A stretch of DNA of 24,036 nucleotides. Origin: an uncultured Christensenella sp. (GTDB lineage: Bacteria > Bacillota > Clostridia > Christensenellales > DTU072). A program made the translations under genes and the position numbers. The notes beneath the pieces were generated by a model. That model saw only the letters and a list, made by a program, of their open reading frames with translations. It had not been told where the DNA came from and did not search any database. The stretch spans positions 1 to 24,036 of the forward strand of contig CAZVHD010000001.1 in assembly GCA_964626765.1 (NCBI GenBank). Reading direction: 5' to 3'. Below, piece by piece: positions 23,494 to 23,981 of this stretch; positions within the stretch are counted from its first letter, which is position 1; every line of letters starts with the position of its first letter.

Positions 23494-23643
23494 ATAGAGT
23501 GCATAAACTAAAAACTTACACTTGAAGCTTAGCCGTGCCGTAAGGGAAAAGCAAGTCCTTGATAATACTGACAGCTTAGCTTAAGAATAGGCAGAACTAA
23601 GCCAAATGTACTGTGGTCTAAACTACACCATTAAATCCACCTC

Positions 23644-23771
23644 GCTGTTGTAGCTCAGATGAAGCGACGCGTTAAGCAAATGTGCCTGTGCGCACATTTG
23701 TAGCCAAAGCTCGTGAGGAGCGATAGGAAGCAAAGCGACCGTACGACGAGGGAAGCGCGCGTCCTTGGTAA
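23644..23771 (+). pseudogene. tRNA-Thr 5' half interrupted by a D-loop insertion
   Basis: GCTGTTGTAGCTCAG (23644-23658) and GCGCGTCCTTGGTAA (23757-23771) match the tRNA gene exactly. 98 nt sit where TAGGTAGA should be. No 3' half follows. Confidence 0.85.
23659..23756 (+). other. 98-nt GC-rich structured insertion of unknown family (REP/MITE-like or RNA module)
   Basis: 53/98 G+C (54%) in an AT-rich window. 9-bp hairpin CAAATGTGC (23677-23685) / GCACATTTG (23692-23700), a GCTC/GAGC hairpin (23709-23721), and near-direct repeats GAAGCGACGCGT / GAAGCGCGCGT at its ends. Confidence 0.6.
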
Positions 23772-23857
23772 TACTGACAGCTTAGGCAAATATGGCTTAA
23801 AACCTGCCAAAATGTACTGTGGTCTAAACCACATAAAAACCATCATAATCAACACTC

Positions 23858-23895
23858 GCTGTTGTAGCTCAGTAGGTAGAGCGCGTCCTTGGTAA
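23858..23895 (+). pseudogene. Exact 38-nt 5' half of tRNA-Thr(GGT), ending at the last base of the anticodon loop
   Basis: Identical to 23982-24019. Followed by TACTG instead of the anticodon-stem 3' strand GGACG. Confidence 0.9.
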
Positions 23896-23981
23896 TACTG
23901 ACAGCTTAGGCAAATATGGCTCAAAACTAGCCAAAATGTACTGTGGTCTAAACCACATAAAAACCATCAAAATCAGCACTC

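Follow-up and report, generated by a model that had tools for sequence, protein, structure and literature searches.

Orphan tRNA-Thr halves upstream of a Christensenella tRNA-Thr(GGU) gene as probable stacked attachment junctions of serially integrated phages

The tRNA-Thr locus and its array

The window, by which we mean the whole stretch of DNA analysed, is a complete contig (C1) of 24,036 bp from a 77%-complete MAG (G000) of an uncultured Christensenella species. It is dominated by a single 2835-aa ORF (12756-21263, - strand). The contig end falls inside a tRNA-Thr(GGU) gene which starts at 23982 and is cut at 24036. Between this gene and a consensus promoter lie three tandem units, each composed of a 5' tRNA half and a linker. 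The features are listed below with the origin that each would have under the reading developed later in the text.

23465-23493, + strand: host promoter of the tRNA-Thr locus (TTGACA, 17 nt, TATAAT), 12 of 12 consensus positions
23527-23565, + strand: H', decayed 5' half of what would be the host's original tRNA-Thr, the outermost and presumably oldest attL, its core mutated to TTGATAA
23566-23643, + strand: linker 1 (L1), 78 nt, putative left-end sequence of the first integrated element
23644-23771, + strand: second orphan 5' half, 128 nt, presumably from the tRNA of element 1, interrupted in its D-loop
23659-23756, + strand: structured multi-copy repeat of about 98 nt within the D-loop of the second orphan half
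23772-23857, + strand: linker 2 (L2), 86 nt, 94% identical to L3
23858-23895, + strand: third orphan 5' half, presumably from the tRNA of element 2, exact (38/38)
23896-23981, + strand: linker 3 (L3), 86 nt, leader of the present tRNA, with 91% identity to linker 1 in the related genome G001
23982-24036, + strand: tRNA-Thr(GGU), working copy presumably brought by the last element, cut by the contig end

The truncated gene matches the Rfam tRNA model with 42.3 bits over positions 1-53 of 71 (3' truncated), has its core TTGGTAAG at 24013-24020 and is 100% identical across its 55 nt to the native tRNA of G003. No second tRNA-Thr(GGU) was found in the assembly of G000. At E <= 1 the tRNA is the sole Rfam match in the 22500-24036 region, where no T-box, intron or ribozyme was detected.

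All tRNA-half copies in the array end after the anticodon loop TTGGTAA (TTGATAA in H'). According to the original prediction, the half nearest to the tRNA is exact, the next one carries an insertion and the farthest is barely recognisable. The first two points were confirmed: the third orphan half (23858-23895) is identical to the tRNA 5' half (23982-24019) at 38 of 38 positions, while the second, with acceptor strand GCTGTTG, matches the intact half exactly in its first 15 and last 15 nt and has the insert of about 98 nt in the D-loop. As to the farthest half, the 18/29 identity in its 3' part and the TTGATAA loop were found again, and the copy could be extended to 23527-23565, with 26/40 identity over the full length. 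Its alignment score of 10 compares with -7.1 +/- 3.4 for shuffled sequences, none of which (0/5000) reaches 10, and with a background maximum of 6 across 6676 contig windows. It starts 33 nt past the -10 box, where the native tRNA starts in unoccupied relatives. H' is a genuine relic of a tRNA half.

The linker values given earlier were reproduced on re-measurement. L2 and L3, both 86 nt long, differ at five positions (23798, 23804, 23805, 23846 and 23852), and the shorter L1 is more diverged, with 65-66 matches per 89 alignment columns against either of them. The unit period is 124 bp. Linkers are 85-100% alike across genomes; L2 is 85-87% identical to those of other genomes, and four of the five states distinguishing L2 from L3 are also present in linkers elsewhere. 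There are 50 invariant columns across 17 other linkers, of which L1 retains 37 and loses 13; in a leave-one-out check of five linkers including L2 and L3, each keeps 50 of 50-52 columns. The conservation of L1 is patchy, with two stretches, 14 and 20 nt long, that are free of changes (permutation P < 1e-5). By sequence inspection, the linker start is able to pair with the invariant GCTG of the acceptor strand.

Both L2 and L3 contain a palindrome, TGTGGTCTAAACCACA (23818-23833 and 23942-23957), which forms an intrinsic-terminator-like hairpin on the minus strand and could serve as a stop for antisense transcription leaving the prophage. L1 preserves this hairpin via a change that is G-U compatible on the + strand only.

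The same locus in related genomes

Relatives of the window were taken from Christensenellales MAGs and metagenome loci, and all comparisons were made at the species level. In G031 and G003 the locus is unoccupied: the same promoter, in the same position and beside the same SIS-domain gene, is followed directly by the tRNA. The SIS-domain gene and the promoter are syntenic within the family. One half-plus-linker unit is present in G002, G011, G022, G029 and G059 (the latter belongs to another family), two in G001, G061 and the metagenome locus mg68 (L068), and three in the window. The mg67 locus has one unit, whose linker is that of G061 unit 2, with the orthologous outer half in front. The pairs G061/mg67 and G011/mg68 are compatible with a shared outer half plus an extra inner unit, but the linkers are not cleanly orthologous. 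A search of JGI metagenomes with the host's flanking SIS-domain gene returned no relative and no strain of the same species. A decayed outer unit was also considered in G062 (CAYTUT) and rejected, as its alignment is no better than that of shuffles; a linker-tail resemblance of about 24 nt remains there.

In all 12 occupied loci a complete tRNA-Thr(GGU) is located inside attL, at a distance of 84-86 nt. ARAGORN called a single tRNA in each array and did not call any at the attL and attR junctions, and the full-length tRNA-Thr(GGU) match is single in each of G001, G003, G022, G029 and G059. The stretch comprising the linker, the tRNA and about 245 bp downstream is 81-91% identical across genera and, in G059, is conserved across a family boundary, while the host flanks have no comparable similarity. 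The downstream part includes a terminator, an inverted linker motif TACTGTGGTCTAA and GGCATA-N5-GGCATA repeats. The 3' tail of the linker co-varies with the type of the tRNA that follows (GCTGTTG or GCTGCTA acceptor). Given this conservation relative to the flanks and the co-variation between tail and tRNA, the linker, the tRNA and the arm block form an element-borne mobile module.

No promoter-like site was found within L2 or L3, and the array has no + strand terminator. Expression of the tRNA therefore probably starts at the captured host promoter and runs through the whole array.

The integrating element

The arm block is followed by a tyrosine integrase gene reading towards the tRNA. In G001 it is full length and codes for 461 aa with Phage_int_SAM_3, HTH_3 and Phage_integrase domains (PF00589 at 7e-23, phrog_1 at 5e-61). 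In G011, G059, G061 and G003 the arm block is followed by stubs of this protein, and the integrase is absent from the G029 locus. In G001 the attL-attR span is 57 kb and includes a full tailed-phage gene set with genes for TerL, portal, major head protein, tape measure, tail fibre and holin. One intact prophage, that of G001, suggests that the family is active; most relatives hold integrase stubs or none.

The sequence common to attL, attR and attB is TTGGTAAG in G001 and G061 and CCTTGGTAAG in G022. The common core of element and tRNA is thus only 8-10 bp, (CC)TTGGTAAG, and neither junction rebuilds the tRNA. The junctions lie in the anticodon loop, and an intact tRNA is present at the same promoter in G031 and G003, so attB overlaps the host tRNA gene.

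The right-hand (X) arms are conserved over about 170 bp (L034:1925-2090, L071:240-415, L072 and L073) and contain three GGCATAAAA repeats. Just before the core they read GGTAGAG / GGTATAGAGG. The similarity of this sequence to a tRNA D-arm gives attP the look of a degenerate tRNA gene.

In G001, cargo of about 5.9 kb is located between the arm block and the integrase gene (L023:14368-19287), with a matching stretch in L025 of G059. Its products are a 23S rRNA methyltransferase of the Erm family (NCBIfam Erm23S_rRNA_broad, 213.5 bits at a cut-off of 212) and an ABC sugar-type transporter. A membrane-transport component of 294 aa, the sole full-length cargo-ORF match, is 100% identical at the protein level between G001 and G059, which belong to different families, and this identity points to a very recent transfer.

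The attP junction of a free phage (X, core, linker) was not found in IMG/VR or among GenBank phages. The exact-pattern scan of IMG/VR gave one match, a chance coding hit, and GenBank phages yielded only tRNA matches plus integrases of at most 29% identity. In the 77%-complete bin of the window no 3' half, arm block or integrase was found; two motif matches on its contigs C7 and C16 lie in coding DNA and were dismissed as chance. The window contig ends 17 nt past the core, so the right side of the model is unseen in this genome.

Nested halves and order of integration

The G001 attR is located 57 kb downstream of the array on the same strand, where ..cccgtTTTGGTAAG is followed by GGTAG..CAATAGCTCCA; it also reads X-TTTTGGTAAG and then the tRNA 3' half. 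The strands GGTAG and CAATAGC of this 3' half form 12 of 12 pairs with the inner orphan half (CTACC and GCTGTTG), CTACC being the unusual anticodon stem of that half, and only 8 of 12 with the outer half or the current tRNA. An intact tRNA made of the G001 inner 5' half and this 3' half exists in the metagenome locus L070. Past attR, G001 has a second terminator, a second arm block and the 3' end of an integrase gene at the contig edge. It thus contains one full integrase gene and the 3' end of a second, compared with a stub only in G061.

In G061 the inner 3' half lies 13.4 kb downstream. Contig C6 carries the outer one, which is followed by a different terminator, taken to be that of the host. 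Each 3' half pairs best with its own 5' half. Across G001 and G061, pairing with the own partner gives 12/12 stem pairs, 11-12 of them Watson-Crick; with the wrong partner there are 8-10 pairs in G001 and fewer Watson-Crick pairs in G061. The attR of G022, on another contig, pairs 12/12 with the G022 host half. No 3' half was found within 20-40 kb in G001, G059 and G029; G059 and G029 seem to have lost theirs along with most of the element.

Each event in G001 and G061 is thus represented by one 5' and one 3' fragment, co-oriented and nested. Because each 3' half, in mirror order, pairs with its own 5' half, the halves are nested, with the innermost pair the most recent and each event splitting the tRNA of the previous element. 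From the nested order in relatives it follows that the unit nearest to the tRNA would be the newest. The original prediction, that the intact tRNA is the target each time and that the array grows at its tRNA-proximal end, is borne out by the mirror-order pairing in G001 and G061. In the window itself, of which the left side alone is assembled, we infer the order by homology.

Serial integration and its alternatives

We consider, with a probability of roughly 0.85, that temperate phages (or their remnants) integrated serially and site-specifically into the anticodon loop of tRNA-Thr(GGU), and that the array is the resulting stack of attL junctions. In relatives, the left end of such an element consists of the 86-nt linker, a complete tRNA-Thr(GGU), a terminator and the block of about 245 bp, followed by the integrase gene. 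Integration there yields the order host promoter, orphan 5' half, linker, new tRNA, the element, X arm, core and orphan 3' half. As the delivered tRNA has the same core, it is the integration site of the next phage; successive 5' halves thus accumulate at 86-nt spacing, the newest being innermost, and the 3' halves nest far downstream in mirror order. The new tRNA would be transcribed from the captured host promoter across the stack and presumably trimmed by RNase P. Orphan halves would be free to decay or to take up the D-loop repeat, and once they have decayed, excision would presumably no longer restore a working tRNA. The three units of the window would correspond to one old event (H'-L1) and two recent ones. 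Past the 3' half of the window's tRNA and a terminator, the model places the block of about 245 bp with TTAGACCACAGTA and the GGCATA-N5-GGCATA repeats.

A more far-reaching version, which we regard as doubtful, adds a ratchet and a function: the phage tRNA would lock the innermost module in the chromosome, since cured cells would be inviable, and the conserved linker blocks would be functional. The perfect blocks could cap orphan acceptor strands in the leader RNA, letting the real tRNA fold, or could be putative protein-binding sites titrating incoming integrase. If so, the array would have a role in tRNA maturation or superinfection control.

Local tandem duplication, in which unequal crossing-over or slippage copied the 124-bp unit after a single integration, is unlikely. 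The regular 124-bp period, the 94% identity of L2 and L3 and the 38/38 match of the flanking halves are what it would give, and arrays apparently contract too, judging by the single mg67 unit with its G061 unit-2 linker. However, successive halves and linkers differ in type in G001, G061 and mg68, and the halves have matching 3' partners in G001 and G061. Duplication gives no account of L1 or H'. At equal neutral rates, the probability of no change in the 38-nt orphan half against five in the 86-nt linker is about 0.1. Moreover, four of the five differences between L2 and L3 are already present in other elements, which favours two closely spaced integrations by related phages over duplication of one unit.

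Serial integration is also preferred over a selected leader RNA, in which the halves would act as tRNA-half decoys or as a regulatory or processing element and not as passive scars. The consensus promoter and the lack of a + strand terminator before the tRNA do suggest transcription, two linker blocks are perfect even in the oldest unit, the hairpin change is G-U compatible on the + strand, and the linker start can pair with the acceptor-strand GCTG. Nevertheless, the number of units varies from 0 to 3 among species of one genus, the halves decay or bear inserts, the leader has no Rfam family, and relatives account for each unit as an att junction that has its matching 3' half; such a selected leader is very improbable.

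An assembly artefact, in which strain variants were wrongly joined at a contig end rich in repeats, could be suspected from the position of the array at the extreme end of a MAG contig, but has a negligible chance of being correct, as the same architecture with one or two units occurs in the interior of long contigs from independent projects, the three units can be told apart and a read pair is longer than the 124-bp period. A tRNA with an anticodon-loop intron and a split or permuted tRNA were rejected as readings, as was a CRISPR-type array, given linkers that are 85-100% alike across genomes with 50 invariant columns.

Age of the units and the D-loop repeat

The original prediction spoke of polarised decay, with units becoming older with distance from the tRNA. 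The order is indeed chronological, but linker divergence is no clock, as L1 keeps two perfect blocks. Uniform neutral decay mispredicts this pattern: L1 has 34/34 bases in the two blocks next to an H' that is about 65% identical. Continuing constraint or gene conversion from L2/L3 would explain the perfect blocks. Linker divergence is a mix of differences between incoming phage lineages and of decay, and the usable age signal comes from the tRNA halves only. Among arrays of several units, the window and G061 show greater damage in the outer half than in the inner; in G001, L068 and L069 the two are equal, and in none is the outer half less damaged. Integration events were expected to be spread over time; what is found is one old plus two recent events, not a smooth gradient.

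The insert in the second orphan half belongs to a family of structured repeats, generally of about 90 nt, with the layout GGAGCGACGCGTTAAGC, a variable hairpin, GTAGCCAAAGCTCGTGAG, a second variable hairpin and CGAGGGAGG. It occurs at 23659-23756 of the window and in L005, L036 and L051-L066. Copies are found at many unrelated sites in G001-G004, without a match in Rfam, and the first hairpin has 8 pairs with compensatory changes in 12 copies. The repeat is also present in the D-loops of the outer orphan halves of G002, G061 and L067, and in the D-loop of a 5' fragment of another tRNA (G002:C149). It seems to persist only where the D-loop sequence is no longer needed, and the insert may therefore mark the time since orphaning. 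In G004 the repeat often abuts a second one (..ggatgagatccctc..cgggatgaca..).

Comparison with known systems

Guerrero-Bustamante and Hatfull (mBio 2024; PMC10865867) described tRNA-dependent lysogeny in the actinobacteriophages Fionnbharth, LeBron, Gaia and others, defining it by a short core, the lack of tRNA reconstruction and a phage-borne cognate tRNA. As far as sequence can tell, the stack appears to be tRNA-dependent lysogeny outside Actinobacteria: four of the five defining features are present, and the fifth, the requirement for the tRNA, is an experimental one. Both groups have a tyrosine integrase and an attB inside an essential (here presumably so), apparently single-copy tRNA gene, a common core (8-17 bp in actinobacteriophages) too short to rebuild the tRNA at attL or attR, a phage cognate tRNA of the same isotype which replaces that of the host, and paired arm-type repeats flanking the core (PMC10865867). 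Unlike the actinobacteriophages, the elements described here target tRNA-Thr(GGU) in hosts from the Christensenellales (Bacillota). The tRNA of Fionnbharth is located kilobases from the core and has its own promoter (PMC10865867), whereas here 86 bp separate the co-oriented tRNA from the core and the linker contains no promoter-like site. Because the cognate tRNA adjoins the core, the 5' halves form a compact stack, which sets this locus apart from those of actinobacteriophages. The possibility that a second copy could integrate into the vector-borne tRNA had been raised as a speculation by the authors of that work (PMC10865867). Prophage Lj965 of Lactobacillus johnsonii is named there as a likely non-actinobacterial case; it too resides in a member of Bacillota, does not rebuild the tRNA and encodes a cognate one, and the passages of that article on Lj965 mention no junction stack (PMC10865867).

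The arrays resemble the tandem islands found by Islander in that integration at one tDNA is repeated, each island leaves one displaced fragment and the order of fragments mirrors the order of arrival (PMC4383910). They also resemble the 'A' class att sites of Williams, in which the crossover is centred on the anticodon loop and the stem provides inverted core sites. In Islander islands, however, the gene is restored by a partial copy carried by the element, and the single fragment lies a whole island away (it is a 3' fragment in 3760 of 3919 islands; PMC4383910), while here each former tRNA has left two orphaned halves, with 86 nt between one 5' half and the next.

The original comparison with a CRISPR-like temporal record holds for polarity only: as in CRISPR arrays, units are added at one end, beside a fixed element, and in chronological order. 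The linkers, in contrast, are near-identical element-borne sequence and not invader-derived spacers, the repeats are fragments of the target gene, nothing suggests an immune function, and neither adaptive machinery nor a role in interference is implied.

Overall, the locus presents a recently described kind of lysogeny with a new architecture and in a new host group, and it extends tRNA-dependent lysogeny to uncultured gut and digester Clostridia (Christensenellales). What is new is the position of the replacement tRNA beside the crossover site, by which the host promoter would be captured and the attachment site regenerated. Such a design would remove the need for compatibility between phage and host tRNA halves. 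Its by-product would be a compact, ordered ledger of lysogenisations, easy to sequence, in a leader of about 100-500 bp. This ledger would outlive the prophages, and it could help to reconstruct the infection histories of MAGs and to discover phages of this type.

Other observations at tRNA-Thr loci

In L069 (1040-1125) the outer unit has a different junction: its half continues through TGATG, a near-complement of the anticodon stem, and enters an unrelated 55-nt linker containing TTGACA. It would seem, then, that this tRNA is also the target of a second lineage of elements.

At L070 (1-64) no tRNA half stands before the linker-tRNA module; an IS3-like transposase frame ends there instead (..NHKKVERIWREEGLKVPKKQ, other strand). 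Here the IS element has replaced the orphan half.

Behind the native tRNA-Thr of G003 (C19, L036:440-600) there is an inverted T-arm fragment followed by a copy of the structured repeat, and the row ends in a direct repeat of the tRNA's final 25 nt (GGTTCAAATCCCGTCAATAGCTCCA). It looks like a scar of a different element, one targeting the T-loop.
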